A stretch of DNA of 64,000 bases from an uncultured Acidobacteriota bacterium (GCA_963770895.1 CAVYRF010000002.1:1952001-2016000); one strand, 5' to 3'; counted from the first letter of the stretch, positions 19,510 to 43,132 are shown. Numbers and translations: made by a program. Notes: generated by a model from the letters alone, not told the origin.

Positions 19510-19689
19510 TCAGCAATACCCCTGGCCACAGAGCGTGGGGCAGGTACAGGTGACGCAGGAGACCGTACAGGCGCAGGTCCTTTCAAACCTGGCCGTGTTG
19601 GCCCCGCCGTTCGCCTGGACGAGATCCGGCGCGCCCAGACCGCGCACCGTATCGCGATTGAGCTGCAGCTTCTTGCGGGTCTTCTTCAC
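19510..19689 (-). CDS. RiPP/class I lanthipeptide-like precursor peptide P1 (59 aa)
   Basis: AGGGAGG RBS, GTG start; MKKTRKKLQLNRDTVRGLGAPDLVQANGG|ANTARFERTCACTVSCVTCTCPTLCGQGYC*; KLxLxRxT leader, double-Gly site, 7 Cys and 7 Ser/Thr in the core. Below the ORF-track size cut-off. Confidence 0.88.
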   Translation of the reverse strand: MKKTRKKLQLNRDTVRGLGAPDLVQANGGANTARFERTCACTVSCVTCTCPTLCGQGYC

Positions 19690-20064
19690 ATCGCCTCCCT
19701 TGCTAGACCTCGTTCGACGTCGTTGTCAAACGAGGCGCCGCCCGGCAGCGACGCCGCATCCGGCCTGAAGAGCTGCCGGGCCGGCGTCACCAGGGGCCAT
19801 GCCCTGCTCGCCCCCGCATTAACATGCGCACTTGAGCGACAAGAAGTGACATCATCTGCCCGACGGTCAAACCGGTCGCCTGCGCCTGAGGCAGCACCAG
19901 GCGGGAGCCCTGTTTCAAAACGGCGGCACCGGCCGCGATTGCCGGCGGGCTGTCGTCGCTGGGGGCCATCTGCCCCAGCGGGGCGCAGCGGGCTTGCACG
20001 CCCTCAGCAAGCCCGCCACCATGGCGGGCGAGCGCTCAGGGTCATCCTTCGCACGAACCCGCCG

Positions 20065-20772
20065 ATGACCCGAGCCGAGAAAGCGCGCCGCATCTTAGCG
20101 ATCCTCGACGCCCTCTACCCCGAGGTCGCGATCCCCTTACAGCATGCCGATCCCTTCACGCTGCTCGTCGCCGTCGTGCTCTCGGCGCAGACGACCGACA
20201 AGCTGGTCAACGAGGTGACGCCGGCGCTCTTCGCCCGCGCCGCGACACCGCAGGCGATGGCCGCTCTGCCGGTCGAGGAGATCGCGCGGCTCATCCGCCG
20301 CATCGGGCTCACGGCTATGAAGGCGAAGCACTTGAAGCGTCTCTCCGAGATCCTGGTCGCGGAGCATGGCGGCGAGGTGCCGCAGACGTTCGCCGCCCTC
20401 GAAGCGCTCCCCGGCGTCGGCCACAAGACCGCCTCCGTCGTCCTGAACCAGGCCTTCGGTCTCGCCACCTTCGCCGTCGACACCCACATCCATCGCCTCG
20501 CCGCGCGCTGGGGCCTGTCCTCGGGCAGGAACGTGGTGGAGACCGAGCGCGACCTGAAGCGCCTCTTCCCCGAGGACGCCTGGGGCCGCGCGCACCTCGA
20601 GATCATCTACTTCGGCCGCGAATACTGCCCCGCCCTCCGCCACGATCTCGACGCCTGCCCAATCTGCTCCTGGGCCGCGTCTAAAAAACGCAAGGAGGCG
20701 GAGCGGAAGAGGAACCGCGGTCTAGCCCGGCGGCCCGCCCCTAGTGCCCCGAGTCAGAAATTCACACCATAA
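20065..20772 (+). CDS. nth: Endonuclease III (HhH-GPD DNA glycosylase)
   Basis: LLVAVVLSAQTTD, HhH motif LPGVGHKTA, VDTH, C-terminal CPALRHDLDACPIC. Confidence 0.93.
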   Translation: MTRAEKARRILAILDALYPEVAIPLQHADPFTLLVAVVLSAQTTDKLVNEVTPALFARAATPQAMAALPVEEIARLIRRIGLTAMKAKHLKRLSEILVAEHGGEVPQTFAALEALPGVGHKTASVVLNQAFGLATFAVDTHIHRLAARWGLSSGRNVVETERDLKRLFPEDAWGRAHLEIIYFGREYCPALRHDLDACPICSWAASKKRKEAERKRNRGLARRPAPSAPSQKFTP

Positions 20773-20906
20773 TTCGGCGGCCCCCCACGCCCCTGGCGGC
20801 GTTGCGCCTCCTCGACATAGGTTCGACTATGCCTGCGGCGGCGCGCCTGGCCAGGAGCGCGGATGACTCGCCGACTTATGCCGCTAATTTCTGACTCGGG
20901 ACACTG
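20742..20906. mobile_element. MITE-like palindromic element (165 bp)
   Basis: TAGTGCCCCGAGTCAGAAATT (20742-20762) is the reverse complement of AATTTCTGACTCGGGACACTG (20886-20906) at 19/21 positions; pairing continues internally (CATAATTCGGCG / CGCCGACTTATG). Confidence 0.75.
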
Positions 20907-21078
20907 GCGATTTACGGCGGCTGTCGGCTGCTGGGCGAAATCGACCCTGCTGCTTACCCGAAGCTGAGGAGCGGGCCGGCGGGCAGGGCCAAGTTTTCGC
21001 CTTGAATTGGTGCACCCCCATCAGGCAGGGCGCGCCATACGGCGGGGAGCGCCGGGCGGATTGATATCATTGCCGCCC

Positions 21079-21609
21079 ATGGAGGGTGCTGCTCCGGAGA
21101 TCGAGTTCGACACCGCGGCCGCCTCCGATGCGCCAGCCCTCGCCGCCTTGCACGGGGCGATCGCCGACGACCTCACCGCCCGCTGTGGCAGGGGCCACTG
21201 GTCGTTGCGCGCGAGCGAGAGGGGGGTCCTCCTGGCGCTGCGCACCGCGCGGGTCCGCGTCGCCCGTCGCGGCGGTGCGATCTGCGCCACCTACGCGCTC
21301 GTCAGCAAGAAGCCGTGGGCGATCGACATCCGCTTCTTCACCGCGTGCGCCCGCGCCCTCTACCTCGTCAACATGGCGGTCGATCCTGCCCACCAGCGCC
21401 GGGGCCTCGGCCGTCTGTGCTTGGCCGATGCGAAAGCTGTGGCGGTGGACGTCGCGGCGTCGGCCAGGGGCCGGGTCGGCGCCATCCGGCTGGACACCTA
21501 CGACGGCGCCGCCGGCGCGGCAGGCTTCTACGCCAAGGCCGGCCTGCGCGAGGTCGGCCGGGTCGTCTACCGGCAGACGCCGCTGGTCTATTTCGAGCTG
21601 CTGCTCTGA
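21079..21609 (+). CDS. GNAT family N-acetyltransferase
   Basis: MAVDPAHQRRGLGR acetyl-CoA motif A; AAGFYAKAG motif B. Confidence 0.85.
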   Translation: MEGAAPEIEFDTAAASDAPALAALHGAIADDLTARCGRGHWSLRASERGVLLALRTARVRVARRGGAICATYALVSKKPWAIDIRFFTACARALYLVNMAVDPAHQRRGLGRLCLADAKAVAVDVAASARGRVGAIRLDTYDGAAGAAGFYAKAGLREVGRVVYRQTPLVYFELLL

Positions 21610-21765
21610 TCCAACTTGCGCGACGCCCGTTTATGGGCTCGCCAGCGGCCTTTTTCCTCAGCCGCGAGCCTGTGGGGCGATGAGGGAGCTTGCGTGAACC
21701 GGCTGCGCCCCCCGGCGGCGGGCCAGGATGGAACGACCGCTGCCTCGCAGTCGGGGCGACGCGAA

Positions 21766-22583
21766 CTACCCGAATTCAACATCCGTCGGATGATTTTGAC
21801 GCACGACCGTATTGCGATGCACCGACACGAGGGCGGCGCCACCCTCGACAAAGATGCCGCCGCCGCGCCCGCACGGACTGCCGTTGCCAACGATGACACT
21901 ACCACCGAGCTGGACGCCGATCGGTGCGTTGAAATAGATGCCAGCTCCTGCGCACCAAGCAGCGCGCAGGGTATTGTCCGTCACGCGGCTGCGCCACATT
22001 CGCAATTTGCTGCGCTCGCACCAGATCCCACCTCCACGGGCACCGGCCCCAGAATAAACTTCGTTGGCCTGGACGGTGCCGCCGGCAATTTCCACCTGGC
22101 AGTTCTGAAAGAAGAGACCGCCGCCGCCGCCGTGCCGCCGTTCACCACGTTTCCCACGATGGTGGTCTTCTGGATTCGAACGCTTGAATTTCGGCAATAC
22201 ATGCCGGCGCCGAAGAGTTCGTCAGCACCCTCGCCGATACGGTTACCAGCCACGATGGAGTCCTGAAGGCTGAGCGACGAGTTCATCACCCAAAGGCCCC
22301 GGTTGCATGCATTCGAACGGATTTCGACGCCGCTCAGATGAAGGCTCGACCGCTCCACGCAAAGTACCGCCAACCCACCGTCGCCACTGATGGTGACGCC
22401 CCGCCTGGTTAGCAAGGCGCTCTGAATTACAACGTCTTGCTTATCGCGGATGCTCAGGCTCTCTGCATACACCTCAGGCGCCACAACGATGGTGGTGCGA
22501 CCCCTCGCCGCATCGATCGCAGCCTGAATCGTCAGGAACTGCTGTGGGACAAGGAACACCTCGTGTGCAACGGTCGCCGCCAT
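21766..22583 (-). pseudogene. Right-handed beta-helix (pectin-lyase-like) protein, frameshifted near 22135
   Basis: TIQAAIDAA...YAESL N-terminus and GAGMYC/GGGIWC/GGGIFV repeats are split over two frames at a (GGC)n run. Confidence 0.7.
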
Positions 22584-22589
22584 CGGTCG

Positions 22590-23066
22590 CTAGATGCCAG
22601 GACGCTGAACCGCCCCATCGCCGGTGAGAATGCGACGCGCATAGTCGATCTGGCCGAGATGCCAGTTCAGGTGTCCGTAGAGGTGGACGAGAAATGCCTG
22701 CGTCGAAAGGGCCCTTTCGAGCACCACTTGCGGGTACTCGCTCTCCATCTCGGCCGAGGAAAGCCCTTCCAGAACACCAGGAATGAGGGTCGTCAGCTCC
22801 GCAATCCGCGCCCCCAGCTCCGCCCTGCCAATACCCGTTGAGCTGAACTCCATTTCGCGCTGCCGGCTGTACGGCACCTTGCCCAGCTGGCGGCCGATAT
22901 ACTCCCTCAGGTTCCCTTCCAGGTGAAGCACAAGGTTCCCCGGCGAATTGGCGATTCCGGGAAGCCTCTGCCACAGCACCTGGTCATCAGGGAAAGCCTT
23001 GACCTGCTCATAGAGCATGGCGAGGTCGCGCCGAAACAACACCGCAAGGTCTCGCGTGAAGCTCAT
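22590..23066 (-). CDS. DinB/DUF1572 family protein
   Basis: NSPGNLVLHLEGNL...R.REMEF...HLNWHLGQI, the DinB His-triad pattern. Confidence 0.85.
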   Translation of the reverse strand: MSFTRDLAVLFRRDLAMLYEQVKAFPDDQVLWQRLPGIANSPGNLVLHLEGNLREYIGRQLGKVPYSRQREMEFSSTGIGRAELGARIAELTTLIPGVLEGLSSAEMESEYPQVVLERALSTQAFLVHLYGHLNWHLGQIDYARRILTGDGAVQRPGI

Positions 23067-23283
23067 GGCAGTTTGAACCGGCCGATAACGCTGCCGTGCT
23101 TGAGGATAGCAGTGTAGGTTCTGGCGGGCATTCGTAGCCTCCGACTCGATCTTAGCACCGGGTGCCAGCGAGGTGCTGACCAGCCAGAAACGAGCCGAAA
23201 ACGCCGTCTCGCCCGGCCCGCACTCGTCACCGGCCGAGAGGGGCGTCTCAGCCGGTGACTCGATGGTTGGAGTAAAGCGGCGG

Positions 23284-23463
23284 TCAGCCGTTGGCGATGG
23301 AGCAGACGTCCTGAGACCAGGTGGTACAGCCGAAGACGCGCTCGGTGGTATAGCAGGCCCACGTTGCGAGCGGGGCGCCGGCGGCAGCGCGCGTGAGCTC
23401 TTGCGGGGTGAGGCGGCGCAGGGATTCACGATGCAGCGGAAGCTTCTGGAGCTGGGTTTTCAT
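23284..23463 (-). CDS. RiPP/lanthipeptide-like precursor peptide P2 (59 aa)
   Basis: MKTQLQKLPLHRESLRRLTPQELTRAAAG|APLATWACYTTERVFGCTTWSQDVCSIANG*; leader aligns without gaps to P1; core has 3 Cys and 7 Ser/Thr. Confidence 0.75.
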   Translation of the reverse strand: MKTQLQKLPLHRESLRRLTPQELTRAAAGAPLATWACYTTERVFGCTTWSQDVCSIANG

Positions 23464-23773
23464 GAGAGTGGTCTTTCTGGCCTCTGGCCGTTGGTGACGA
23501 GGAGCCGGAACCGCAAGGCGCGTACCATCCCCCGGCGCCTTTCGCCTCCGGGTATAAAACCTTTCGTTTCCAAGAGCTTGGCGTTGTAGAGCGGCCTCCA
23601 GGCATGGATCGGGGTTGAGGTGGAAATGCCAGAGATGAGGCGGCTTCGCCAGAGGCTTCGCTGAGCAGGCCCACGATCCGATACATTTGGACGTAAGTTC
23701 GGTGCCATCGCACGGGTGAAGTTGCGGCATGTGGCTTGCGGTTCAGGGGCGGTGCCGAAACGGATGGAGGAGC

Positions 23774-24170
23774 ATGCGTTCGCTTGTCGATCCGGTCGAG
23801 AGCGCGCGGATGGCGGGCTTGCGCCAGGTGGCCGACGACGGACCAGGGATTCGGCGTCGGCGCCAGGAAGCCGGGTTCAGCTACCGGGATGCGGCGGGAC
23901 GGGTGGTTCACCAACGAAAGGTCCTGCGGCGGATCGCCGGCCTGGCGATCCCTCCGGCCTGGAGGGACCTGCGGGAGTTCCGCGGACTCGACGCGCCCGC
24001 CCCAAGGCGGCGGCGCCGCAGGACGGCCTCTTGGTCGGAAATCCGGGAACGGCCGCACTGGCGATCGCCTACGCTGCGGGGAGTGTTTACGGTGGACTGG
24101 AACCAGCCGGCGCCCGATGGCTCTGGAAAGCCGCTCACCCGAACGAGGTGGTCGCCACCGTCGCCGCGGA
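23774..24170 (+). pseudogene. DNA topoisomerase IB N-terminal remnant
   Basis: VDPVESARMAGLRQVADDGPGIRRRR..GFSYRD...RIAGLAIPPAWRD matches the bacterial TopIB N-terminus; the rest is degenerate and the end is approximate. Confidence 0.75.
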
Positions 24171-24202
24171 ACCGGCCTCCGTGGTCAGGTCGCCCACCGC
24201 CC

Positions 24203-25064
24203 TCAGAAGCGCATGGCTGGTCTTGCCGTGGCTGACGCCACGTCTGTCGAAAGGCTCACGTCCCACCACTGCGCGCCCTCGGCCGCCCGCGTTTTCTCGG
24301 CTTCGGCGGCGAAGCGAACCGCGTCGCTACCGATCAAGAGGTGCGCCGGAAGACGGTCACTGGATGCCAGACGAAGCACAACCTGAGCTACCTTGGCGGG
24401 ATCACTGATCTCTTTCCCCCAATACGATTTCAAGGCCTTGGCAACGGCCCCGACGGAGGGTTCATAGTCCGGGAGCAGTTCCGGCGTGGCCTGATTGGCT
24501 CGGGCGCCCCAATTCGTCCGCATGCCACCGGGTTCGAGGGCGCACACCTTCACGCCGAACGGGGACAGCTCCTGGGCAAGAGATTCCGTGAAGCCTCCGA
24601 CAGCCCATTTCGCTGCATGGTACGGCGTGCTGCCGGGCCGAGTCAGGCGGCCGCCGACCGATGATATCTGGAGGATGCAGCCGCTCCTTTGCTCGCGCAT
24701 GAGCGGTACGGCCGCACGGGTGACGTTAACCACGCCATAGAAGTTGGTATCCATCACCGCCTTGAACCTCTCCGCGCTCAGCTGTTCGAACGGCGCGATA
24801 TCGCCGTACCCGGCGTTGTTCACGACGACGTCGAGACGTCCAAATGTGGCCATCGCCATCTGCACGGCGGCCTGAGCGGCGCTTTCATCTGTCACGTCAA
24901 GAGGAACCGCGCGAACGCGATCGCCGTATTTGTTTACCAAGTCATCGAGTCGCTTTGGGTCGCGTGCCGTGGCGACGAGGCGATCGCCGGATTCGAGCAC
25001 GGCTTCCGCGATGTCTCGGCCCAAACCGCTCGCACTGCCCAGTCACTAACCACACTTTATTCAT
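24203..25064 (-). pseudogene. SDR family oxidoreductase, +1 frameshift near 25039
   Basis: AGGAGG RBS, MNKVWLVTG then a frame change to SASGLGRD; NNAG and YHAAK catalytic motifs. Confidence 0.85.
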
Positions 25065-25089
25065 CACCTCCTACCTTTCTTCCGTGCGC

Positions 25090-26113
25090 CTATTGCCTGG
25101 GTTCAGATCGTGGGAGCACTGCCCTCAACTGAGAGGGTGTCGTCCCTTCCCACGTTCGGAAGGCTCGATAGAAAGAATTCGAATCCTCGTAGCCGAGCAG
25201 AAATGCCACTTCCGTGACATCCATCTCCGGCCGATTGAGATACTCGTGCGCCAGTTCCTGCCGCGCCTCAAGAAGCAACTGCCGGAAAGTTGCGCCGTCA
25301 TCGATGATTCGCCGCTGCAAAGTCCGATCGCTCAACCCGAGTTCGCGAGCCACGGCCAATATCTTCGGCCGGCTTCCCGCGAGCAGGCGCTTGAGAATCC
25401 ATTTCACCTGCTCACTGATCGAGCTCTGCGCGCGGCGCTCTTCAAGTGCGCGTTCGAGTTGCGGATTCAGCATGTCAAAGCAACTCGGCATTGTAGGTAA
25501 GGAATGGCCGATCGAGATCGGTCGCGTGCAGGACGAGCGCATTCCGTCGCGCTCCGAACGTGATTGGGCCTTTAAAATAGGCTTCGTGGAAGCCGGTCGC
25601 CTCCGCGCTGCGCTTCAGCTCGACCCTTTTCGCCGTCACAAAATGTCCTGTGCCGCGGCGACCAAGTTCAACGAACGAGACAAAGGCGGCGTCTGTCAAC
25701 AGAGTCGGGGTTTCTTCCTGCGCGTGCAGCCACACAGGCTCGATCACGCACTCGTCCTTGCTCACTTTGATTTGCAGTTCCTCGGGCGAGCACAGTTCCT
25801 TGAAGCGAGCAAGGCGGGTGAGGGCGTCTCGGTAGTCGCGGGCGTAATAGGCCGCCATAGTTGACGGTGGCCGATTGCCAACGTCGATCTGAGTGGCGAT
25901 TTTTAGGCCCGCGGCCGGATCGGCGGAGAGCTCGCCTACGGCACGCCAGAGTGCGAAGAACTGAGCCGTCGTGACCAGGTTCTTCTTGCCGTCGTAAACA
26001 GTCAGCGGCAACCGAGCTTGGCTCAGCACGGCTGTTGGCGTAAGTCCGATCTTAGCGAGCCCTATCCAAAAGGCGTTCGCGGCTTTGAAAAGGTCTGGCA
26101 CATGGACGGTCAT
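25090..26113 (-). pseudogene. AraC family transcriptional regulator, +1 frameshift near 25478
   Basis: N-terminal ligand-binding part ends YNAELL*; DMLNPQLE...LSDRTLQRR...EVAFLLGYEDSNSFYRAFRTWEG continues in another frame. Confidence 0.85.
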
Positions 26114-26170
26114 TTTTTTCTCGCCGGTATTTCATCTGGAAGCAATCGCGCTGTCAGGACATCCCTCAGG

Positions 26171-26735: not shown

Positions 26736-26749
26736 AAGCTTTCCCGCCA

Positions 26750-35230: not shown

Positions 35231-35279
35231 TGGTGCACCCAGGAGGATTTGAACCACCAACCTACAGATCCGTAGTCTG
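35231..35279 (-). repeat. att site: duplicate of the tRNA-Arg 3' 49 bp
   Basis: TGGTGCACCCAGGAGGATTTGAACCaCCAACCTACAGATCCGTAGTCTG matches 44975-45023 with one mismatch. Confidence 0.95.
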
Positions 35280-35435
35280 CCACGAACTGCATTAGCGGCG
35301 CTACGCTCTGTTTTCACTTCAGTGGTAAGTGATTCACTTGGCACGCTTTAGTGGTACCATGAGGATGCATGGCGAGTCAAGGTACGGCCTGCTCTATTCG
35401 CCCCGGATTCGCCCCAGGGCAGAGGGAGATGCGAA

Positions 35436-36707
35436 ATGCCACGACGGGCGGCTGCGATCCTTACGGACATCGCCATTCGTAGGCTGCGGCCGACGGCGCA
35501 GCGCTATGAGATCCGGGACGCCTCCAGGCCGGGCTTCGGGGTCCGGGTGGAGGCGGACGGTCGCAAGGTGTTCTTCCAGCGTTATGGAACGCGCGGCGAA
35601 AGGCGCCTCACGCTGGGCGCCTACTCCGGGGCATTCGGACTGGCACAGGCGAGAGCCGCCGCGGACAAGGCGCGCGCCGATCTCGCGGCCGGCCTCGATC
35701 CCATCGAAATCAAGCGGCAGCGTCGCCAACTGGAGCACGATGAAAGGCAGGCGCAGAAGGCGGCGCGTGATGGCCGGCCGGCTCCGGGTACGTTTGCTGA
35801 GCTAGCGGAACGCTACCTGCGAGACGCAAAGCGCCGCCGCCGGGAGCGCAGCGTGCAGGAGGACGAACGCAAGCTGCGGGTGGAGGTGCTTCCAGGATGG
35901 GGCGCGAGGCGCGTCCGGGAGCTTCGGCGTGCCGATGTTCTGCGCCTGGTCGAGGACTCGCGAGAGCGCGGGGGCGTGTGCTCCAATCGGACCCTGGCGC
36001 TGGTCCGCGCGGTCTTTCAGTACGCGGTGGACCGCGAGGAACTGGATGCCAACCCCGCACTGCGCATCCCGCGGCGCTATCTTTTTGTAGAGAAACCCCG
36101 CGAGCGCGTCCTGAGCCGCGCCGAGCTGCGCTCTCTGCTTGCCGTTGTAGACGACCTTGGCCCCATCGTCGGCGGGGCCTTCCGCATGATTCTTGTGACC
36201 GCCCAACGTCCCGGCGAAGTACTCCGCATGCGATGGGAGGAGATAGGCCGAGACGAAGGCGGTCCCTTCTGGGAGCTTTCAGATGAAGTTGCAAAGGCGG
36301 GCCGCGGTCATCGCGTCCCGCTCTCTCGCCAGGCAATCGCCGTGCTCGAACCGCTCCGGCGAATCACAGACTCGACCCCATGGGTTTTCGCGTCACCCTC
36401 GCCGCGGACGGAAGGGCCGGTGCGCTGGCTTTCCCATGCGGCGAACCGGCTGAGGCAGAAATCCGGCGTCGATCACTTCACCCCTCACGATCTCCGGCGC
36501 ACGGCGGCCACCTGCATGGGCGAGCGAGGGGTGCGGCCTGACGTGATTGAGCGCGTCCTGAACCACGTGCAAGCCAAGATCGCGCGCACCTACAACCGAG
36601 CCACCTACGATGCAGAGAAGCGCCAAGCTCTTGCCATTCTCGGCGACCTCATCGATTCGCTTGCGTCGGGCGAAGAAACGCCGTCGAACGTGGTCTGGCT
36701 TGCATGA
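35436..36707 (+). CDS. int: Tyrosine integrase (P4-like, N-terminal arm-binding domain)
   Basis: TAQRPGEV (R), HDLRRT (HxxR), LNH, TYNRATY (Y); N-terminus LTDIAIRRL...IRD...GFGVRV..G.K.F. Confidence 0.95.
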   Translation: MPRRAAAILTDIAIRRLRPTAQRYEIRDASRPGFGVRVEADGRKVFFQRYGTRGERRLTLGAYSGAFGLAQARAAADKARADLAAGLDPIEIKRQRRQLEHDERQAQKAARDGRPAPGTFAELAERYLRDAKRRRRERSVQEDERKLRVEVLPGWGARRVRELRRADVLRLVEDSRERGGVCSNRTLALVRAVFQYAVDREELDANPALRIPRRYLFVEKPRERVLSRAELRSLLAVVDDLGPIVGGAFRMILVTAQRPGEVLRMRWEEIGRDEGGPFWELSDEVAKAGRGHRVPLSRQAIAVLEPLRRITDSTPWVFASPSPRTEGPVRWLSHAANRLRQKSGVDHFTPHDLRRTAATCMGERGVRPDVIERVLNHVQAKIARTYNRATYDAEKRQALAILGDLIDSLASGEETPSNVVWLA

Positions 36708-36763
36708 GCCATGCGCCAGGACCAGTTTCGGGGAGCTAATTCTGCTGGCGCCGGAGGGATAAA

Positions 36764-37441
36764 ATGGGCATCAACGAGATCAGGGCTAGCACAGAGAGAT
36801 CCTTCGACCGCTGGCTAGCGGCAATAAGCAAGTTCGACTACTTCTATATGACCGTTGCGGCCGGCCTCTTGGCGTTCATCGCCAAGGACTACCATCCCCG
36901 TAGACTTGACTCTTGGCTGGACTTCTTCGATCCGGTCTCGATGCTACTTCTCATCGCCGCTTTTACGGTAGGCGCGCTCCGCGTGCAATTGGCCACGCAC
37001 CTGCTGTACCTCGAAGTGGAACAAGGGAAATGTCTATTCAGGATTGAGAAGTACCGGCCGGGCCTCACTAGCCCGGTTCCTGGGGAGGACAATGCCACCG
37101 GCCAAGCAATTGGGAAGGTCGAAGCACAAGAGACAGTGGATGCGGAAAGGGCAAGGCTCAGGGCCATCACGGAGGCGACGGCGAAGGTGACTATGCGCGC
37201 CGCAAAATTTTACCAAGCCCGAGTCTGGCTGCTCGCGGCTGGAATAGGCTTGCTCTTGGTTGGCCGAATACTGACTCCCTACTTCCCTGCATTCGCGGGT
37301 ACCGTTTCCATTCAACAATCCCCAGCGGCGACGACTGGCCCTGCAGGCTCGGCCGTCGGCAGGTCCTCGCCTCAGCTCTTGCTGGAGCAGAAGCTGCCTG
37401 CGCCTGCGGCTGAACCTACACAGGTCCGCCACCCCAGGTGA
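36764..37441 (+). CDS. Hypothetical three-TM membrane protein
   Basis: GGAGG RBS; three hydrophobic segments (about aa 24-40, 58-72, 154-171); KFDYF motif. Confidence 0.7.
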   Translation: MGINEIRASTERSFDRWLAAISKFDYFYMTVAAGLLAFIAKDYHPRRLDSWLDFFDPVSMLLLIAAFTVGALRVQLATHLLYLEVEQGKCLFRIEKYRPGLTSPVPGEDNATGQAIGKVEAQETVDAERARLRAITEATAKVTMRAAKFYQARVWLLAAGIGLLLVGRILTPYFPAFAGTVSIQQSPAATTGPAGSAVGRSSPQLLLEQKLPAPAAEPTQVRHPR

Positions 37442-37626
37442 CAGAATTGATTCCCGCCGCCCGCCCCGACGGCTTGGTGGCGGGCAGTGCCGCGCTCTTC
37501 GCCAGCCGGCTGGGCGGCTCCCCGGCCGCTGGACGGCGATCGCGGCACCTGAAGCCGCCGCTCCTGAGCCAGCCGCGCTGCCACGGCTGGCTGCGGCACC
37601 CGGTCATTCGCGGTAGACTCCGCGAT

Positions 37627-38685
37627 ATGGAGCGGAGCATGACGGCGATCGATCTCTTCGCCGGCGCCGGGGGGGGCACGGAGGGTCTGAAGGCGGCCGG
37701 CTTTCGGGTAGTCGCTGCCGTCGAAAACGACCGGACTGCGTGCAGGACTTACCGGCTCAACCATCCTGGCGTCGTCCTGATTGAACGCGACGTTCGGCGA
37801 GTCACCGGATCGGATCTTCTGCGCGCGGCTGGGTTGCGGAAGGGTGAGACGTGCCTGCTCCAGGCCTGCCCGCCGTGTCAGACGTGGTCGTCGCTTGGCT
37901 CTGCATCCGCTGAGGACCCGCGGAACCAGCTCGTGTCCGTCGTGTCCGAGCTAGTTCGGAAGATCCGCCCCCGTGCCTTCGTGATCGAGAACGTTCCCGG
38001 TCTGCGATTCGATGCGCGGCTCGCTGCTCTCGTTGCGGAGGCTGGACGCCAGCGGTTCCGAGTGCGGGCCTATGTCGTCGACGCGCAGGACGTTGGGGTG
38101 CCGCAACGCCGGCGCCGCCTGATTGTCATCGGCATCCGCAGTCGGCGGCAGGTGGAACTGCCCGAGTCGCTTTTGGACCTGCTGCCAGCCGAATTCGACT
38201 GCACCGCTCGGACAGTCCGCGATGCCATCGGCCACCTGCCAACGCCTGGCGTTGGCGACGATCAACTGCACCGCGGCAGAACCTTGACCGACCTCGTTAC
38301 GCAGCGCGTGGCCGCTCTTCCGCTGGCCGGGCGAAGGACCGACCTTCCAGAGCACCTTCAGCTTGCTTGCCACCAGAAGCTTAAGGGCCGGGTCGCAACC
38401 GCGGCGTATGGACGTATGGCGGCAACCGAAGTTGCTCCCACCCTGACGACTAGGTGCACCACTCCGGCGTGCGGCTCGTACGTGCACCCCTCCGAGAACC
38501 GGGGCATCACCCTGCGCGAGGCCGCGTTGCTCCAGACTTTTCCCGCGAGTTACCTTTTCAGCGGTGGCTACGGTGCGATCGAGCGGCAGATTGGCAACGC
38601 CATTCCCGTCCGCCTCGCCGAGGCTGCGGCCATGGCTGTGCGGACGCTTCTCGCGCCAGCGGGCGAAAGGCGACTCGGGACGTGA
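37627..38685 (+). CDS. DNA (cytosine-5)-methyltransferase
   Basis: Motifs I DLFAGAGG, IV PPCQ, VI ENV, VIII PQRRRR, IX REAALLQTFP, X QIGNAIP; start position uncertain. Confidence 0.95.
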   Translation: MERSMTAIDLFAGAGGGTEGLKAAGFRVVAAVENDRTACRTYRLNHPGVVLIERDVRRVTGSDLLRAAGLRKGETCLLQACPPCQTWSSLGSASAEDPRNQLVSVVSELVRKIRPRAFVIENVPGLRFDARLAALVAEAGRQRFRVRAYVVDAQDVGVPQRRRRLIVIGIRSRRQVELPESLLDLLPAEFDCTARTVRDAIGHLPTPGVGDDQLHRGRTLTDLVTQRVAALPLAGRRTDLPEHLQLACHQKLKGRVATAAYGRMAATEVAPTLTTRCTTPACGSYVHPSENRGITLREAALLQTFPASYLFSGGYGAIERQIGNAIPVRLAEAAAMAVRTLLAPAGERRLGT

Positions 38686-40724
38686 CGCCTAACTCTACGA
38701 ACGGGCCGTCCGCCACCACGACGGTGCCCGAGGCGCCGCTCGTCCTCAAATTCGGCGGCTCCCTAGTCGAGCAGCTCGGGGCGCAGCTATACCCCAGCGT
38801 GACCGCCACAGTGGCAGAGCTCCTATCCAATGCCTGGGACGCGGAGGCCAAGAACGTCTGGATCACAATGCCGTTTGGCGTGTGGCATGCCGACGACCGC
38901 ATCGTGGTGACGGACGACGGACATGGCATGACGCGATACGAGGCGCAGCACTCGTACCTCGTCGTGGGCCACAAGCGGCGCGGGGAAGGCCGAGGCGCGC
39001 TGTCTGCGAGTGGTCTGCGCCGCGTTCACGGACGCAAGGGCATCGGCAAGCTGGCGGCATTCGGCACGGCTGGCATCCTCGAATGCTCGACGCTAAAGAA
39101 CGGCCAGCACGTCGCCTTCAGGTTGAACTACGACGAAATCCGCAAGCTCGATCCATCGGCAGACTACACGGTAGAAGACGCGGTGGATCTTTCGGCACCG
39201 ACGAATCCAGAGAGCGGTTGCCCGCTCGAGCACGGCACCCGCATCAGCCTCTCGCGGCTGCTGCAGAAGAGGGCGCTCGGCGAGGGCCAGTTTTTCCGGT
39301 CCATGGCTCGGCGGTTCGCGATCTCGGCCGACGAGATGGCCGTGCGCATCAACGGTACGCCGCTTCAGCGGTTCGACATGAGCGTCCAATTCAGGTTCCC
39401 GCCGGACAGCATCCCCGAAGGCGTGGCGATCGCCAACGGCTGGGCGGTCGAGTCTATCGCGCCCGGCCACGAGGTGCGCTGGTGGATCGGTTTCACCGAG
39501 AAGCCCTTGGAAGACGAGACGCTTCAGGGCATCTCCGTCCTCGCCAATCAGAAGATGGCCCAGCGGCCGTTTCTATTCGACCGCTCGCGCGGCACTGAGG
39601 GACAGCTCGGACAGGAGTACCTCGTCGGCGAGGTGCAGGCCGATTGGATCGACGCCGGCACTGACGTCGAGGACGACCTCATCCAATCCAACCGAGACCA
39701 GCTCCAGATCGAAGACGACCGCCTCACGGTTTTCGTCGAGTGGGGACGCAGGCGCTTGGCGTGGGCACTGAAGGAGCGCAACCGGTTGCGGCAGGACGCC
39801 GCCGTGCGGGGCTTCGAGGCAAGCCAAGAGCTGCTCCAGCTGTTCGACCCCTACACGAGAACAGAGCGGGCACAACTTCTGCGGCTCGCGGTCAACGCCT
39901 CAAAGCTGCCGGAGATGACCGGCGACTCCCTCCTAGAGCTCATGCAGTCGGTCGTAGACGCGAGATCGGACGCCGCTGTGCGCCAACTGATCGAAGAGAT
40001 CGAAGCATCCGACGAAGCGGTGCAGCCCCGCATGTGGGGACTGGTCCGCCAGTTCGGCCTGATCGATGCCCGGCGTACCTTCAGCATCATCCAGGCTCGG
40101 CTGAAGACGATCAGCAAGCTGAAGGAAGCCCTTGCCGCTGGCGCCAAGGAGGTGCCCGACCTACATGACATCGTCAAGAAGGATCCTTGGCTCCTCGACC
40201 CTCGCTGGCACCTCCTCGACGACGAGGTCGACCTGACGAAGTTGGGCATCGACTTCCAGCCGGCGACCGACGAGACCGGCCACCGGCTCGACTTCATGTT
40301 CGCGCTCATGCCCAAATCGCCCGCCCCACTCGACGAGATCATCGTTGTGGAGATCAAGCGCGGATCCGATCTGCAGGGGAAAAAGCGCGTCGCAACCGAG
40401 GAGGAGGTCAACAAGTTCCACTCGTACGTCCTTGCGGCCAGGGAGCACGAGCAACGCAACGGCTCGCAAGCAAAGGTGCGGGGCCTCATGATCACCCAGG
40501 GCTACACGGCAAACGGCAACCGCGTCAAGCAGAGCCTGGAGGAGAACCCGACGATTGAGCTTCGCTTCAGGACGTGGGACCGCGTCATCGCCGAAACCGA
40601 GCGCATGCACCTCGGATGGCTGGAGGTTTCCCGGGCAAGGAGCCGAGCCGAGGAGCCGGAGCCTGAGTTGGTCGACGAGGATGCCGTGGTGGAAGCACCG
40701 TCTCCTGACCATCCTCAGAGGTGA
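38682..40724 (+). CDS. GHKL (MORC/MutL-like) ATPase fused to a C-terminal PD-(D/E)xK nuclease
   Basis: ELLSNAWDA, DDGHGM, GRKGIGKLA, HGT boxes; C-terminal RLDF...IIVVEIKRG; GTGA overlap with the MTase. Confidence 0.88.
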   Translation: MTPNSTNGPSATTTVPEAPLVLKFGGSLVEQLGAQLYPSVTATVAELLSNAWDAEAKNVWITMPFGVWHADDRIVVTDDGHGMTRYEAQHSYLVVGHKRRGEGRGALSASGLRRVHGRKGIGKLAAFGTAGILECSTLKNGQHVAFRLNYDEIRKLDPSADYTVEDAVDLSAPTNPESGCPLEHGTRISLSRLLQKRALGEGQFFRSMARRFAISADEMAVRINGTPLQRFDMSVQFRFPPDSIPEGVAIANGWAVESIAPGHEVRWWIGFTEKPLEDETLQGISVLANQKMAQRPFLFDRSRGTEGQLGQEYLVGEVQADWIDAGTDVEDDLIQSNRDQLQIEDDRLTVFVEWGRRRLAWALKERNRLRQDAAVRGFEASQELLQLFDPYTRTERAQLLRLAVNASKLPEMTGDSLLELMQSVVDARSDAAVRQLIEEIEASDEAVQPRMWGLVRQFGLIDARRTFSIIQARLKTISKLKEALAAGAKEVPDLHDIVKKDPWLLDPRWHLLDDEVDLTKLGIDFQPATDETGHRLDFMFALMPKSPAPLDEIIVVEIKRGSDLQGKKRVATEEEVNKFHSYVLAAREHEQRNGSQAKVRGLMITQGYTANGNRVKQSLEENPTIELRFRTWDRVIAETERMHLGWLEVSRARSRAEEPEPELVDEDAVVEAPSPDHPQR

Positions 40725-41233
40725 CGATGCAAGAGCCGTGCGGCACACTCGCCCCAGATCCCGAGCTGTCCCACAAGACGCGGAAGGTGCGTCCCCCATC
40801 AGCCCGCGACCGAGCGCGGCTGGTTGCTCAGCGGCGGCACGAGACGGCGCCCGAGATGGCCGTTCGTCGTGAGATGCACCGGCTCGGGCTTCGCTATCGC
40901 ACGCACGTTGCCGTTCTCGATGGGACGCGCAGGACCGTCGATATCGCGTTTACCAGGGTGCGCGTGGCCGTGGACGTTCGCGGCTGCTGGTGGCACGGCT
41001 GCCCCGTCCACGGATCGTTGCCGCGAGCGAACACCGAGTGGTGGGCGGCTAAGTTCGCTGCCGTACGGAGGCGCGACGAGGACACCGAGGTACGGCTGAG
41101 GCAAGCCGGATGGCATCTCGTCGTCGTCTGGGAACACGAGGACCCCGCCATCGCCGCACTGCGCATCGACGCCGCCGTCCGGGGCGGGGGCCTCGCGCGC
41201 CTCCTCCCTACATCCAGTCTCGACCTAGTTTAG
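40721..41233 (+). CDS. vsr: Very-short-patch repair endonuclease
   Basis: TAPE..VRR.MHR.GLRYR...DIAF...GCWWHGCP.H...P..N..WW..K...RRD...GW..V.VWEHE; GTGA overlap. Confidence 0.92.
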   Translation: MTMQEPCGTLAPDPELSHKTRKVRPPSARDRARLVAQRRHETAPEMAVRREMHRLGLRYRTHVAVLDGTRRTVDIAFTRVRVAVDVRGCWWHGCPVHGSLPRANTEWWAAKFAAVRRRDEDTEVRLRQAGWHLVVVWEHEDPAIAALRIDAAVRGGGLARLLPTSSLDLV

Positions 41234-41281
41234 CCGTAGTGCGAGGATCTCCTGCGCGGAACCCCCGTGTGCAGCTCCCGA

Positions 41282-41377
41282 GGACTTTTTGTTTTCCAAT
41301 TCGCGGGCGCACCCACGCTGCCGCGGTCCGGTCACTGGCTTAGTGGTGCTAGAGATTCAGACCCCCCTACTCCCCCC
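41282..41377 (-). other. Conserved non-coding cos/packaging-site-like motif, copy 2
   Basis: Minus strand GGGGGGAGTAGGGGGGTCTGAATCTCTAG...GTGACCGG...CCCGCGAATTGGAAAACAAAAAGTCC. Confidence 0.5.
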
Positions 41378-41577
41378 GACAAGCGTCAGATGCTCGCCAC
41401 GCTCGCCTAGCGAAGGGTGGAAACGGCTCCCGGACCTACTAGCCGCTAGCCTGCCGTGGTGGTCGTCATGCAGGGATCGCAGATGGTGAGGCAAGACACC
41501 GAACAGGCCTCAGTTGGGCGAGCTCCTGGCGCTTCGCGCAGCACCTGGGCGGTGAGCGTGGCTAGCGTCTCGCGGTT

Positions 41578-42189
41578 TGTTGCCGGCTGAGCAGACCCGC
41601 TGCTATTCGGTGAAGAACGCGTGTCACCGCCGCTGCTTAAATACCGCTGCTGGAGGGCGCCCTCGGCGTCGGCTGGTATTGAACCAGCGGTGGAGGGGTC
41701 GAAAGCGTAGGAACTCTGTCCGAACTGTTCCGCAGACTGGGCAGACTGGCGGCCGCGGTTCGGTATCGGGCGAGAGGAGGCCGGCAGGCTGGGGCGTATT
41801 GCGACACTGCTCCGTCACGACCGGTCGGCGCTCCGATTGGCGGTACCGGGCTTGGCGCTCTGCATGAAGCAGCCGTCCGCGTGGCGTAGCCTGGTGGCGC
41901 CTGTTGGATGCTCGCTGCTTCTCCCTGCGTGCGGCTCGCGCACACACCTTGCCGCAGTAGATGTTGCCTCGGTCGCACCCCGAGCAGATCGCGACCAATG
42001 CGCGACACCTGAGACAGCAGTACAAACGCTGAGCCTTCATGGTAGAGCCAGTCTACCGCCAGCCGCCGGCCCGCCGGTCCCCCTTGTCCACCCCCCCGGC
42101 GGGGATGATGCTGAGGGAACTTCACCACCTCCGATGGCTGAGAACTGCGTTCTTCACCGGATAGCAGCGGGTCTGCGCAGCCGCCAACA
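41578..42189. mobile_element. 612-bp non-autonomous IS21-like mini-element
   Basis: 43-bp TIRs (40/43 identical, TGT...ACA); 5-bp TSD CGGTT at 41573-41577 and 42190-42194; no transposase. Confidence 0.92.
41624..42040 (-). CDS. Cys-rich, Arg-rich putative zinc-finger protein (only ORF of the mini-element)
   Basis: CLRC..V.ICSGCDRGNIYCG..CAR.ARR...HAERQARYR...CPVC; I recall this type upstream of IS21-family istAB. Confidence 0.75.
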   Translation of the reverse strand: MKAQRLYCCLRCRALVAICSGCDRGNIYCGKVCARAARREKQRASNRRHQATPRGRLLHAERQARYRQSERRPVVTEQCRNTPQPAGLLSPDTEPRPPVCPVCGTVRTEFLRFRPLHRWFNTSRRRGRPPAAVFKQRR

Positions 42190-43132
42190 CGGTTGAATGC
42201 CAGTTTGGGGGACCGCTTCTGCATTTGGTTTCTCCTTTCGCCGAAAAGCCCTGATCAGACGAGATGACCGCGCGGCTTGAGGCGCCAATCGGCCCCACCA
42301 CCGCGCGGCAGAATTCTCGCATGAAAGAGGAGACGTGGGCGTCAAGGGTTCCGCGCCTGTCGCTAAGACCTGCACAGGACCACCACCAAAGTTCACAGAA
42401 TCGATTCCCTGAGGTAGGCAATCCGCGACGCCATGCTCATTTATCTACAGTGATTTACGCCTTGTTAGGTGCGATGGCTTGGGTGCGAGGCTGTGGTGGT
42501 TGGTAGAGACTCCGACCACCACAGCCAGCAACGCCAAATCCCCCGATCAACCTGGGCACGACACTGCCGACGATAAGGTATGCCCCGGCGCGCCCAGGCA
42601 AGCCCCGGCGGAAGAGAAGGGAAGGATGGCGGCGGGGCGGTTGGACGAACGCTGGAATGGTTGGCCCGATTCGTCGGATTACGGGCGGGCGTGCTGGCAG
42701 GTGACTGTCGCGGCGGGCACACCCCCTCCCATGCCTGGGAGGTGAGGTGTTAGGCGGGCGGCTGGGAAACCGCAGGGAAGGGCCTTTCAGGGCAGCCCTC
42801 GCCTTTCCGGGTTAGTCTTGTTTGCCGGGTCTAGCCCGGCGCCCAGGCATTCGACCGGGACGTGGGGGTCGAGGTGCTTGCGCACTCTCGGACGAGATCA
42901 AATACTCGTCGCCGTTGCCCGGATTTCCCCGTGCCTACCACTTTGCCGGCAGCGATCATTGCCAGCCCTGTTGAGCCTTTTCGGTCTTTCACCTTGGACA
43001 AGGCTTTTCCTATCGTAACCATCGCAACGCGGCCCGGCCCACTCTCCACAGTCGGCCGGGCCTATAGTCTTCAGCGGACCTGAAATTTCCGTCCAACAAA
43101 GCGTCAGTCGTGCAGCGGGGCCTTGCCGGTCC

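Follow-up and report, generated by a model that had tools for sequence, protein, structure and literature searches.

A dispersed family of about 98 precursor genes with a class I lanthipeptide-type leader in a soil Thermoanaerobaculia bacterium

Introduction

In a 64,000-nucleotide stretch of DNA (C2:1952001-2016000, hereafter the window, in which positions are counted from the first letter) from an uncultured soil Thermoanaerobaculia (Acidobacteriota) bacterium, three short minus-strand genes, P1, P2 and P3, were noticed in a preliminary description to share a leader while differing in their cores. The locus raises the question of what these genes encode, how many of their kind the genome holds, and which enzymes would mature peptides that have no maturation genes beside them in the window.

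Results

Three genes with one leader

The genes are laid out as follows.

19510..19689, minus strand: P1, intact precursor gene of 59 aa with a GTG start (open reading frame and family profile)
23284..23463, minus strand: P2, intact precursor gene of 59 aa with an ATG start, MKTQLQKL (open reading frame and family profile)
42190..42224, minus strand: P3, 5' part, with the start codon and first 12 codons, including one copy of a 5-bp target duplication
41446..41577, minus strand: P3, 3' part, with the remaining leader residues (ETL onwards), Cys/Thr core and stop codon

The leader, of about 30 residues, follows the consensus MKKxxxKLxLxRETLxxLxxxxLxxAAGG. All the conserved positions listed in the preliminary description (K7, L8, L/F10, N/H11, R12, D/E13, T/S14, L18, L23 and A26) are present in P1, P2 and P3 alike. 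The motif of P1, L8-x-L10-x-R12-x5-L18, has its equivalent in P2 and P3 (with F10 in P3), and in each peptide the L-x-L-x-(K/R)-x5-L motif is combined with a Gly-Gly-type leader end (GG at residues 28-29 in P1, AG in P2, and GA at 28-29 in P3). The available text of Walker et al. 2020 (PMC7268733) describes an LxLxKx5L...GG leader in class I LanAs that go with C39 proteases. Beyond residue 30, P1 has 7 Cys, all in the core, and 7 Ser/Thr, and the P2 core has 3 Cys and 7 Ser/Thr, so that both combine Cys with Ser/Thr for possible thioether rings; the P3 core has 4 Cys. The longer frame around P2 extends to 23730, and P1 is preceded on its 5' side by the Shine-Dalgarno sequence AAGGGAGG. Full-length identity to P1 is 51% for P0111 and 54% for P0056, both proteins from other public assemblies, in which the C-terminus of the P1 core is conserved. 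A DinB/MST-like ORF (weak Pfam match) lies 3' of P2 on the same strand, from 22590 to about 23090.

The sole relevant NCBIfam match of the three peptides at E ≤ 10 was NF038153, the class I leader model named 'class I lanthipeptide'; no Nif11-type family was among these matches. Scores were 16.9 bits for P1, over the full model length, and 11.6 bits for P2, and the 3' fragment of P3 gave no match, which leaves all three peptides below the curated cut-off of 22 bits. Of 34 matches to NF038153 in the genome at E ≤ 1, only 3 exceeded the cut-off (C2:2396579, C2:5020250 and C1:2212736); P1-P3 are tied to these three members because the family's own profile takes in both. The class I assignment in the preliminary description is supported, the leader being of the LxLxKx5L/GG type of NF038153 and of the available text of Walker et al. 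2020.

A genome-wide family

P1, P2 and P3 are members of a real family of about 98 genes, whereas the preliminary description counted three: the shared-leader family it proposed exists, and its size had been understated about 30-fold. In the six-frame motif and profile search that had been suggested, an iterated leader profile matched 86 genome segments at E < 1e-3, rising to 98 at E < 0.1, compared with 0 matches at E < 0.1 among reversed segments. A start codon and the full motif were present in 96 of the 98 segments, which gives, for the 8.16 Mb genome, 96 intact members plus P3 and a copy that lacks a start codon, dispersed over 86 loci and all three contigs. An independent HMMER run returned 93 matches at E ≤ 0.01. 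We also scored P1, P2 and P3 against a profile of the 94 other members, from which all three were excluded, with E-values that take all 119,748 six-frame genome segments as the search space; these were 3.9e-12 for P2, 4.1e-10 for P1 and 1.6e-6 for the read-through P3 peptide. Because of these values and the empty reversed control, the shared leader is beyond chance.

One of GGAG, GAGG or AGGA was found 4-18 nt 5' of the start in 85 of the 96 intact members, compared with 10% of 2,000 random 15-nt genome stretches; no common promoter motif was found across family members. Cores consist of 15.5% Cys, 14.4% Thr and 8.0% Ser (Cys in leaders: 0.6%), and 92 of 96 contain at least 2 Cys. Ser and Thr together equal or outnumber Cys in 94 of 96; with Thr and Ser (22%) as abundant as Cys, core composition fits thioether chemistry. 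Mean pairwise identity was 39% among leaders, 24% among cores and 22% among shuffled cores; the description of the cores as unrelated and rich in Cys, Ser and Thr holds family-wide. Public protein data contain 140 homologues at E ≤ 0.001, and among the 120 listed, 3 carry the NCBI name 'class I lanthipeptide [Thermoanaerobaculia bacterium]'.

P3 and the tRNA-Arg island

P3 lies in a mobile context made up of the following features.

35231..45051: integrative island in tRNA-Arg, about 9.8 kb, carrying P3 (att repeats, tRNA and Pfam)
35231-35279 and 44975-45023: direct att repeats of 49 nt, 98% identical
35436-36704, plus strand: tyrosine integrase of the island (Pfam)
37438-38682: C5 methylase of the island (Pfam)
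38454-40721: HATPase protein of the island (Pfam)
40721-41230: Vsr of the island (Pfam)
41578..42189: mobile element of 612 bp splitting P3 (boundaries, and second copy by blastn)
41624-42040, minus strand: Cys-rich ORF of 138 aa inside the element
43133-43453, minus strand: AlpA of the island (Pfam)
44975-45051: tRNA-Arg at the island end

The P3 frame, read from 42224 on the minus strand, enters foreign sequence past codon 12, and the stop codon of the 3' part is at 41446. As had been proposed, an insertion interrupts the gene: reading through over the 612-bp element restores an uninterrupted P3 peptide of 53 aa, with the same leader as previously reported. The element has terminal inverted repeats of about 42 bp and a 5-bp direct target-site duplication at 41573-41577 and 42190-42194, which reads CGGTT on the plus strand. 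By blastn there is one other full copy (C2:5252179-5252784, 99.67% over 606 nt), flanked by a different 5-bp duplication, and there are two fragments. In four public runs the contigs depart from this sequence exactly at 41578, the element boundary. The 138-aa ORF had no Pfam or NCBIfam match. P3 is cargo of a tRNA-Arg integrative island and was itself struck by a small transposable element, and it has been inactivated recently. The suggestion that mobile DNA moved family members around is supported in part: by this island and element, and by a tyrosine integrase within 4 kb of 7 of the 96 intact members (1.4 expected). Most members, however, are located in ordinary-GC DNA.

Maturation enzymes elsewhere in the genome

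Whole-genome searches gave no LanB, LanC, LanM or C39 match inside the window, in agreement with the preliminary description, and the distal enzymes it called for were found:

C2:5180050-5183580: canonical LanB of 1176 aa, no internal stop (PF04738 550 bits, PF14028 236 bits)
C2:5178405-5183580: the LanB together with an adjacent, convergent LanC of 536 aa (PF05147 112 bits)
C1:1782768-1784978: C39 peptidase-ABC exporter 1
C2:2970254-2973838: C39 peptidase-ABC exporter 2, beside HlyD and a lone LanC

The LanB, the sole canonical one of the genome, carries the two Pfam domains in full and matches MibB (5ehk) at 5.3e-47, and the LanC can be aligned to NisC across the AHG, WCYG and CHG motifs. 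Like the LanB, the LanC and the exporters are intact. The pair lies 3.2 Mb from the window and 18.8 kb from the nearest family member, and the 1.5 kb upstream of LanB contain no precursor; none in the studied genome is clustered with a LanB/LanC of its own. Because no precursor adjoins the pair here, we infer its pairing with the family.

The genome encodes further candidate leader-binders: one protein of 925 aa with Lant_dehydr_N only, one with Lant_dehydr_C only, two LanMs (DUF4135-LanC proteins) and two kinase-LanC proteins, as well as about nine LanC-like proteins from lone genes; its LanC-domain matches number 14. Both LanMs adjoin a TIGR03898-type precursor of their own (47.4 and 71.2 bits; cut-off 23.5), and a motif scan found only these two such precursors in the genome. 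Neither P1 nor P2 matched TIGR03898, and we rejected an assignment of the family to the mersacidin/lichenicidin-type class II precursors, which only the two LanM-adjacent peptides fit.

A predicted complex of LanB (residues 1-800) with the P1 leader scored 0.50 (partner pLDDT at least 49, run agreement at least 56%), compared with 0.00 for the best of 3 controls. In calibration, 58 of the 80 solved complexes reached the mark, as did 2 of the 110 mismatched pairs, but only 7 of these 80 did so at 0.60 or under. The prediction weakly suggests binding, and the score may reflect recall of likeness, because a NisB-leader complex has already been solved.

Leaders and LanB across relatives

Comparison across genomes links the leader to LanB by position and by phylogenetic distribution. 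Of the 80 LanB loci of relatives examined, which come from Acidobacteriota, Myxococcota and other phyla, 29 have a peptide with the same leader within 6 kb of LanB. Among 41 related genomes, which are kin, so that their counts are not independent, 25 contain leaders and all 25 of these have a PF04738 match, whereas none of the 10 genomes without a PF04738 match has leaders. These two observations support the link between leader and LanB, one of the grounds on which the interpretation in the preliminary description is supported. DUF4135 was not matched in 7 of the 25 genomes with leaders, among them G018, which is 100% complete and has 36 leaders, and G022, which has 35. Expansion is not an automatic companion of LanB, because G029 has a strong LanB match and no leader match, and G002, G017 and G030 have a LanB with one leader each. 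In most sampled relatives of the same GTDB family 18-67 leaders were scored; the expansion is a lineage trait, not limited to the studied genome.

Discussion

P1-P3 are probably LanA-type precursors of a class I lanthipeptide family of about 98 genes, served in trans by one LanB/LanC pair. In the system that we propose, the single canonical LanB dehydratase would bind the shared leader, glutamylate Ser and Thr via Glu-tRNA, and then eliminate glutamate to leave dehydro residues; the adjacent LanC, a Zn-dependent cyclase, would add Cys thiols to these, forming (methyl)lanthionine rings; and a C39 peptidase-ABC exporter would cleave after GG, AG or GA and export the product. One pair would thereby serve, in trans, about a hundred natural substrates. 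We infer binding, dehydration, cyclisation and cleavage, as well as expression and a biological role.

A less likely reading keeps the peptides as RiPP precursors but assigns their maturation, in whole or in part, to enzymes besides LanB/LanC, with the enzyme perhaps differing between sub-families; we consider it unlikely. The candidates would be the LanMs, the kinase-LanC proteins (class III/IV-like), the lone LanC-like proteins in partnership with some further dehydratase, and the Lant_dehydr_N-only protein. The number of LanC-domain proteins in the genome speaks for such a reading, as does member C2:4304002, which has a LanM and that enzyme's ABC transporter 3.2 kb away. A lone LanC-like gene lies within 4 kb of 4 of the 96 intact members (0.6 expected; 3 of 500 shuffles reach this number), and these four have an ETLLPL leader variant and Cys-poor, His-rich cores. 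Furthermore, in a Thermoanaerobaculia class II cluster, according to the available text of PMC13083261, a Cys-rich core is modified by a LanM and a GMC oxidase. However, LanM is not needed, because 7 of 25 leader-bearing genomes, two of them with 35-36 leaders, lack DUF4135, and because both LanMs have precursors of their own with different leaders; moreover, it is LanB that the leader adjoins at 29 of the 80 foreign loci, and PF04738 that occurs in every leader-bearing genome.

Somewhat less likely still, the genes might encode exported double-glycine peptides (bacteriocin-like or signalling) with disulfides and without lanthionines, or a sizeable part of the family might consist of decaying, unexpressed copies. 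The GG/AG/GA leader end and the two C39-ABC exporters would suit such peptides, the LanB/LanC pair has no neighbouring precursor, P3 is disrupted, one member has no start codon, no RNA run was found to contain the stretch and, of the DNA-level matches in the genus's nine other species, none of the 150 listed (206 further) falls on P1 or P2. Nevertheless, the abundance of Thr and Ser in the cores fits thioether chemistry, 96 of 98 copies are intact with the Shine-Dalgarno core kept in 85 of 96, no leader was found in any of the 10 related genomes without a LanB-type match, and the C-terminus of the P1 core is conserved across assemblies. Although spurious ORFs abound in this high-GC DNA and many overlap P1-P3, the notion that P1-P3 are chance open frames with coincidentally similar leaders is refuted by the leave-out profile (E from 4e-12 to 2e-6), the reversed control (0 compared with 98), the ribosome-binding sites and the public homologues.

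The proposed maturation by one LanB/LanC pair in trans invites comparison with known systems. Pinensins are antifungal and come from Chitinophaga. The pinensin-type leader (NF038153 lant_leader_L1a, family I 17 in the available text of Walker et al. 2020) resembles the present one in its L-x-L-x-(K/R)-x5-L motif and Gly-Gly-type end, and the systems are further alike in a core with Cys and Ser/Thr and in the presence of LanB, LanC and a C39 protease-transporter in the genome. Walker et al. (PMC7268733), in the text available, describe that leader from Bacteroidetes, with precursors inside the gene cluster, whereas here it occurs in an acidobacterium, with R for K (RETL) and in about 98 copies outside any cluster.

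Prochlorosins and SyncA peptides (ProcM and SyncM, marine picocyanobacteria) combine dispersed precursor genes, a conserved leader and hypervariable cores with one synthetase. Prochlorosin precursors are in many cases remote from their LanM (PMC7268733), and SyncM, with 79 precursors, is the most substrate-flexible case reported according to a 2025 review (PMC12328550), both as given in the available texts. The present family matches a prochlorosin-like library in its dispersed genes (96 intact members, 86 loci), conserved leader and unrelated cores. It differs in that the prochlorosin and SyncA systems are class II, with a single ProcM-type LanM and a Nif11-type leader, whereas here about 98 precursors with a class I type leader occur with separate LanB and LanC in soil Acidobacteriota. 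The one canonical LanB may be the single dehydratase for all members of the present family, although the genome also encodes other LanC-domain and LanB-like proteins.

A literature search found no description of such a dispersed class I precursor library, and in the literature examined no class I enzyme was reported to handle about 100 unrelated cores. We lean towards the view that a family-level lineage of soil Thermoanaerobaculia holds the largest natural lanthipeptide substrate library yet seen, and the first of class I, with a single LanB/LanC pair acting in trans. If this is true, the pair would be far more substrate-tolerant than any described class I enzyme, and fast turnover of cores, together in part with carriage on integrative islands, would renew the library.

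The tha/the clusters (Nature 2026, PMC13083261), in whose available text a dispersed class I family goes unmentioned, belong to the same class, Thermoanaerobaculia, and also pair a leader with a Cys-rich core. In that account, modification of the precursor was demonstrated experimentally. Unlike the present family, they are clustered class II systems (ThaM) in which each cluster has a single precursor and an additional oxidase, with thiazole formation by the GMC oxidase.

Three short genes and a dispersed family

The preliminary description had placed three short precursor genes with a common leader (P1, P2 and P3) in the window. All three were found there, every leader position described as conserved being present in each, and they are organized as follows.

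19510-19689, minus strand: P1, a 59-aa ORF with a GTG start
23284-23463, minus strand: P2, starting at the ATG that gives MKTQLQKL
Start at 42224, minus strand: 5' part of P3, 12 codons, followed by unrelated sequence
41446-41577, minus strand: 3' part of P3, the remaining leader and a Cys/Thr-rich core
41578-42189: 612-bp element splitting P3, with terminal inverted repeats of ~42 bp, flanked by a 5-bp direct duplication
41624-42040, minus strand: 138-aa Cys-rich ORF within the element

A longer open frame of P2 extends up to 23730, and it is the short form that agrees with the family alignment. Read across the element, P3 is an open 53-aa peptide with the leader originally described.

The shared leader thus stood, whereas the count of three did not: the genome (8.16 Mb, 70.7% GC, three contigs) holds about 98 such genes, distributed over all three contigs, in agreement with the proposal of a genome-wide precursor library. 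In the six-frame translation, a loose form of the leader motif gave 36 matches, 35 of them short frames with Cys/Thr-rich tails. With one iteration, a profile derived from these matches picked up 86, 93 and 98 segments at E-value thresholds of 1e-3, 0.01 and 0.1, respectively; on the reversed segments, the same profile had no match below 0.1 and two below 1. The six-frame search for further motif-bearing ORFs, suggested as a check in the preliminary description, yielded 96 intact genes after filtering for the motif and a start codon; P3 and a single copy lacking a start codon are additional to these. An independent HMMER search with a 42-leader alignment gave 93 genome matches at E <= 0.01. 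When P1, P2 and the read-through P3 were compared to a profile of the 94 other members, with E-values scaled to all 119,748 segments, they scored 4.1e-10, 3.9e-12 and 1.6e-6, respectively.

The peptides are 42-75 aa long (median 54), and the leader consensus is MKKxxxKLxLxRETLxxLxxxxLxxAAGG. GGAG, GAGG or AGGA is present 4-18 nt before the start in 85 of the 96 genes, vs. 10% of 2,000 random 15-nt genome stretches, and upstream positions -13 to -7 are AAGGAGA-like. The cores consist of 15.5% Cys, 14.4% Thr and 8.0% Ser (Cys in leaders, 0.6%); 92 of 96 cores contain at least two Cys, and Ser plus Thr equal or exceed Cys in 94 of 96. Mean pairwise identity was 39% for leaders and 24% for cores, the latter no different from shuffled cores (22%), with only one core pair more than 60% identical. 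The genes form 86 loci, namely 78 single genes, 6 pairs and 2 triplets, at 11-13 per Mb on each of the three contigs.

Leader type and public homologues

The only relevant curated match to the leader was NCBIfam NF038153 (lant_leader_L1a, 'class I lanthipeptide'), with 34 matches in the genome at E <= 1, three of them over the cut-off. The cut-off of 22 bits was reached neither by P1 (16.9) nor by P2 (11.6), both aligned over the full 32-position model. Walker et al. 2020 describe class I LanA peptides in which LxLxKx5L replaces FxLD, often with a Gly-Gly end and a C39 protease in the cluster, and group these with pinensin (PMC7268733). The family leader shows the same pattern with R for K, which, together with NF038153, supports the class I, pinensin-type assignment made at the outset. 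No Pfam family matched at E <= 1 among the 42 members scanned; PF28317 is precomputed on three public homologues, and Pfam scans of the present family never returned it.

When 5.8 billion public proteins were compared to the 42-member alignment, 140 homologues passed E <= 0.001. Within the 120 of these that were listed, the name 'class I lanthipeptide [Thermoanaerobaculia bacterium]' is given to three by NCBI, and 'natural product precursor' to another three by JGI; the others are unnamed, 'hypothetical' or bear an unrelated name. The precursor type is known; NCBI names it in related genomes. The C-terminal half of the P1 core, along with the leader, also occurs in two of the public homologues, P0111 and P0056 (51% and 54% identical to P1 over the full length, the last 16 residues being near-identical in P0111), and therefore conservation between organisms extends to the core in P1 at least.

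A sub-family of four members (C2:2709152, C2:5020345, C1:652984 and C1:1580058, where C1 and C2 are contigs of the source genome) has ETLLPL for ETLRxL and Cys-poor (0-1 Cys), His-rich cores. The four adjoin lone LanC-like genes, C2:2709152 and C1:1580058 among them, and C2:5020345 is one of the three over the NF038153 cut-off, with C2:2709152 slightly under it. These four members may follow another route.

Modification enzymes and exporters

As the preliminary description had it, the window lacks LanB and LanC (class I dehydratase and cyclase), LanM (class II enzyme) and C39 (leader peptidase domain of ABC exporters); all of these were found elsewhere in the genome. The search for LanB, LanC and C39 proposed there returned one canonical LanB, a LanC convergent to it and two C39-ABC exporters, listed here with the two class II clusters.

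C2:5178405-5183580: LanB (1176 aa) and, convergent to it, LanC (536 aa)
C1:1782768-1784978: C39-ABC exporter, TIGR03796 over cut-off, adjoining a second ABC protein and an outer-membrane factor
C2:2970254-2973838: C39-ABC exporter, adjoining an HlyD-type protein, a lone LanC, a DinB_2 protein and a methyltransferase
C2:4300000-4313999: class II cluster L023, LanM with an adjacent TIGR03898 (mersacidin/lichenicidin-type) precursor and an ABC transporter
C2:267000-278999: class II cluster L029, LanM with an adjacent TIGR03898 precursor

The single canonical LanB matches PF04738 (550 bits), PF14028 (236 bits) and MibB (5ehk; 5.3e-47) and has no internal stops. The alignment of LanC with NisC spans the AHG, WCYG and CHG motifs, which we take to hold the catalytic His and zinc ligands of NisC. 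No precursor is present in the 1.5 kb upstream of LanB, which encodes a Gly/Asn-rich secreted protein, and the family member closest to the pair is 18.8 kb off. The genome further encodes two LanMs, two kinase-LanC proteins, about nine lone LanC-like genes, one Lant_dehydr_N-only protein and one Lant_dehydr_C-only protein. A dispersed-family member lies 3.2 kb from the LanM of L023, on the opposite strand.

The second exporter belongs to a one-strand cluster (L028, C2:2961000-2978999) of an HlyD/GAF protein, the C39-ABC exporter, a lone LanC-like protein, a 318-aa unknown, a PMT_2/TPR protein, the DinB_2 protein and the methyltransferase, with neither a precursor nor LanB nearby. This cluster is a candidate trans-acting hub for processing and export of the dispersed peptides.

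Linking the leader to LanB

Four lines of evidence, all indirect, suggest that the leader is served by LanB: gene position, co-occurrence, dispensability of LanM and a complex prediction. The public LanB loci compared numbered 80 and came from Thermoanaerobaculia, Holophagales, Archangium, Cystobacter and others, with LanB identities of 40-73%; in 29 of them, one or more peptides with the family leader are encoded within 6 kb of LanB (E < 0.01). Across 41 genomes (the source genome and 40 relatives), leader matches were found in 25 and a PF04738 match in 31; all 25 leader-bearing genomes have PF04738, vs. leaders in 0 of the 10 genomes without it. Because these genomes are kin, the co-occurrence is a pattern and not a statistic. 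Six genomes have PF04738 and no leaders, and among these, a strong canonical-type match is present in G029 alone.

DUF4135 had no match in 7 of the 25 leader-bearing genomes, among them G018 (36 leaders, 100% complete), G022 (35 leaders) and G008 (27 leaders); indirectly, and at the level of gene content, LanM would appear to be dispensable for leader-bearing genomes. In the source genome, each LanM adjoins its own precursor with a different leader (TIGR03898, 47.4 and 71.2 bits vs. a cut-off of 23.5), and a scan of this genome for TIGR03898-type motifs returned only these two precursors. For the P1 leader and residues 1-800 of LanB, the complex prediction gave a score of 0.50, vs. 0.00 for the best of three controls, and was graded 'weak support'. 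The mark is reached by 58 of 80 solved complexes, but at 0.60 or under by only 7 of them, and by 2 of 110 mismatches; partner pLDDT was at least 49, and agreement between runs was 56% of contacts or higher. This score may reflect likeness only, because the structure of a NisB-leader complex is already available. As far as sequence analysis reaches, the interpretation in the preliminary description is supported.

Distribution in the lineage

The closest relatives of LanB come from metagenome-assembled genomes of Thermoanaerobaculia (Acidobacteriota). Leader matches were found in 9 of 9 other genomes of the genus (1 to 67 per genome). Of 24 further genomes from the GTDB family, 20 had them (up to 56), and the source genome had the highest count, 93. 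No more than 150 candidates were scored for any one genome, and completeness is 81-89% in several. Over the 41 genomes, the family adds up to roughly 900 members. When 200 other Acidobacteriota genomes with a completeness of 90% or more were sampled evenly, 7 had any match at E <= 1e-4, many leaders being found only in G025, from the same order (at least 37 of 39 scored; 51 in the 41-genome search); another of the 7, the unpublished genome G182, had a single match. Most leader-rich genomes have one canonical LanB-type match. Judging from these matches, the leader expansion is common to the lineage.

In two genomes, the canonical LanB-type match is in pieces in different frames, two in G020 (56 leaders) and five in G024 (26 leaders), which suggests either that the gene is broken or that the assembly is faulty. 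In the former case, the precursor families of these two genomes would be orphaned.

Comparison with known lanthipeptide libraries

Lanthipeptide libraries in which one enzyme serves many substrates so far rest on the class II LanM of marine cyanobacteria, as in the prochlorosin and SyncM-type systems, whereas the family described here has a class I-type leader and belongs to soil Acidobacteriota. A 2025 review gives SyncM, with 79 precursors, as the most substrate-flexible case reported (PMC12328550), and Walker et al. note that distant prochlorosin precursors were missed by their distance-limited search (PMC7268733). A characterised cluster of class II type with a GMC oxidase is described from Thermoanaerobaculia in a Nature 2026 paper (PMC13083261). 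In open full-text literature, neither a dispersed class I precursor library nor the present expansion in Acidobacteria was found; the supplementary precursor tables of Walker et al. might list acidobacterial members.

What is new is the scale (~98 genes), the full separation from a single LanB/LanC pair and the occurrence as a trait of a whole soil acidobacterial lineage, and the system would therefore be a class I analogue of the prochlorosin system. If this is true, a soil phylum that is abundant but uncultured would have evolved the strategy independently, on the basis of two enzymes and tRNA dependence; this one genome would contribute about a hundred new core scaffolds, and the lineage many hundreds, and the LanB/LanC pair would be of unusual promiscuity and usable for peptide engineering. 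Because no precursor adjoins the enzymes, cluster-based mining near LanB/LanC alone would miss all these precursors.

Upstream regions and gene neighbourhood

Among the 96 members, no conserved upstream position was found beyond the Shine-Dalgarno region, and the enriched upstream 8-mers were GC-rich words and AAAGGAG only. A shared sigma-54 promoter found no support: a -24/-12 element with at most one mismatch was present in 1 of 96 members (P2, at -64), which is the chance level given 0.64% per random 250-nt window. A sigma-70 and terminator scan of 18900-24000 was uninformative (0 promoters; 3 terminator-like sites vs. 2.8 in shuffles). Among public RNA runs, no match to 15000-24900 was listed. 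Near members, neither ABC transporters (7 observed vs. 6.1 expected) nor sigma-54 activators (5 vs. 2.2 expected, reached in 34 of 500 shuffles) were enriched, and ADOP/MacB-type permeases within 4 kb showed a mild excess (14 vs. 7.3 expected, reached in 10 of 500 placements). Duplicated permeases of the MacB/FtsX type occur at ~61 loci genome-wide, often with a PadR regulator, e.g., at 46011-47990 (minus strand) in the window.

Mobile DNA

The features of the island that holds P3, and those on either side of it, are as follows.

35231-35279: 49-nt repeat of the 3' part of tRNA-Arg, adjoining a tyrosine integrase
44975-45051: tRNA-Arg, which with the 49-nt repeat bounds a 9.8-kb integrative island
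25090-26110, minus strand: split AraC regulator
1-18984, minus strand: giant NRPS ORF, at least 6328 aa, continuing past the window start
52915-63981, minus strand: NRPS-PKS hybrid with thioesterase, 3688 aa

The island also carries a C5 methylase, an HATPase protein, Vsr and AlpA. A second copy of the 612-bp element (C2:5252179-5252784) is 99.7% identical and has another 5-bp duplication, which fixes the element's ends, and fragments are present at C2:5085161 and C1:1486895. In four public DNA runs compared to 40800-42800, coverage was confined to the terminal repeat (41578-41614), which contigs bear in other contexts, diverging exactly at 41578, and no contig bridges P3. The order of events is P3 in the island, with the 612-bp element inserted afterwards. 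The 138-aa ORF of the element has no Pfam or NCBIfam match, and the element is too small for the usual transposase.

Genome-wide, 13 integrase loci were considered, and 7 of the 96 members (tandem members counted twice) are no more than 4 kb from one of them, vs. 1.4 +/- 1.1 expected, a number that none of 500 random placements attained. Mean GC of the members' 6-kb neighbourhood is 69.3% vs. 70.7%, and 10% of members are in the lowest GC decile, i.e., without concentration in low-GC DNA. The earlier suggestion that mobile DNA had moved family members around therefore applies to some of them, as the island and the integrases indicate; given the lack of low-GC concentration, mobile DNA may not be the main route.

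P1 and P2 are outside the tRNA-Arg island, within a 26-kb lower-GC stretch (58-68% vs. 72-77% in the flanks). Compared at the DNA level to the nine other species of the genus, 17600-25100 gave scattered pieces only (NRPS domains, nth, a beta-helix gene, an SDR and a short repeat), with no match over P1 or P2 among the 150 matches listed (206 further). Fragments and small modules abound in 19000-45000 (58-68% GC), including, in addition to the split AraC regulator, Top1B_N and beta-helix fragments, PIN and Phd toxin-antitoxin parts, DUF2280 and a 111-nt repeat at 30244 and 34589 (99% identical); this stretch may be a decayed second island beside the tRNA-Arg island. A DinB/MST-like ORF comes after P2. 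Directly after the nth gene lies a MITE-like repeat of ~168 nt with terminal inverted repeats (20741-20909), for which blastn gave 57 matches in the source genome, 10 of them at least 140 nt long, with identities reaching 96%. Other species of the genus also contain many copies, at 84-90%.

The giant NRPS gene, on the same strand as P1, starts 526 bp downstream of it; among the 4,995 of its residues that were scanned, condensation and carrier stretches each occur 5 times and adenylation stretches 4 times. The low-GC stretch between the two NRPS genes contains isolated pieces of Condensation and TubC_N docking domains, a layout that looks as if insertions had broken up an NRPS/PKS cluster.
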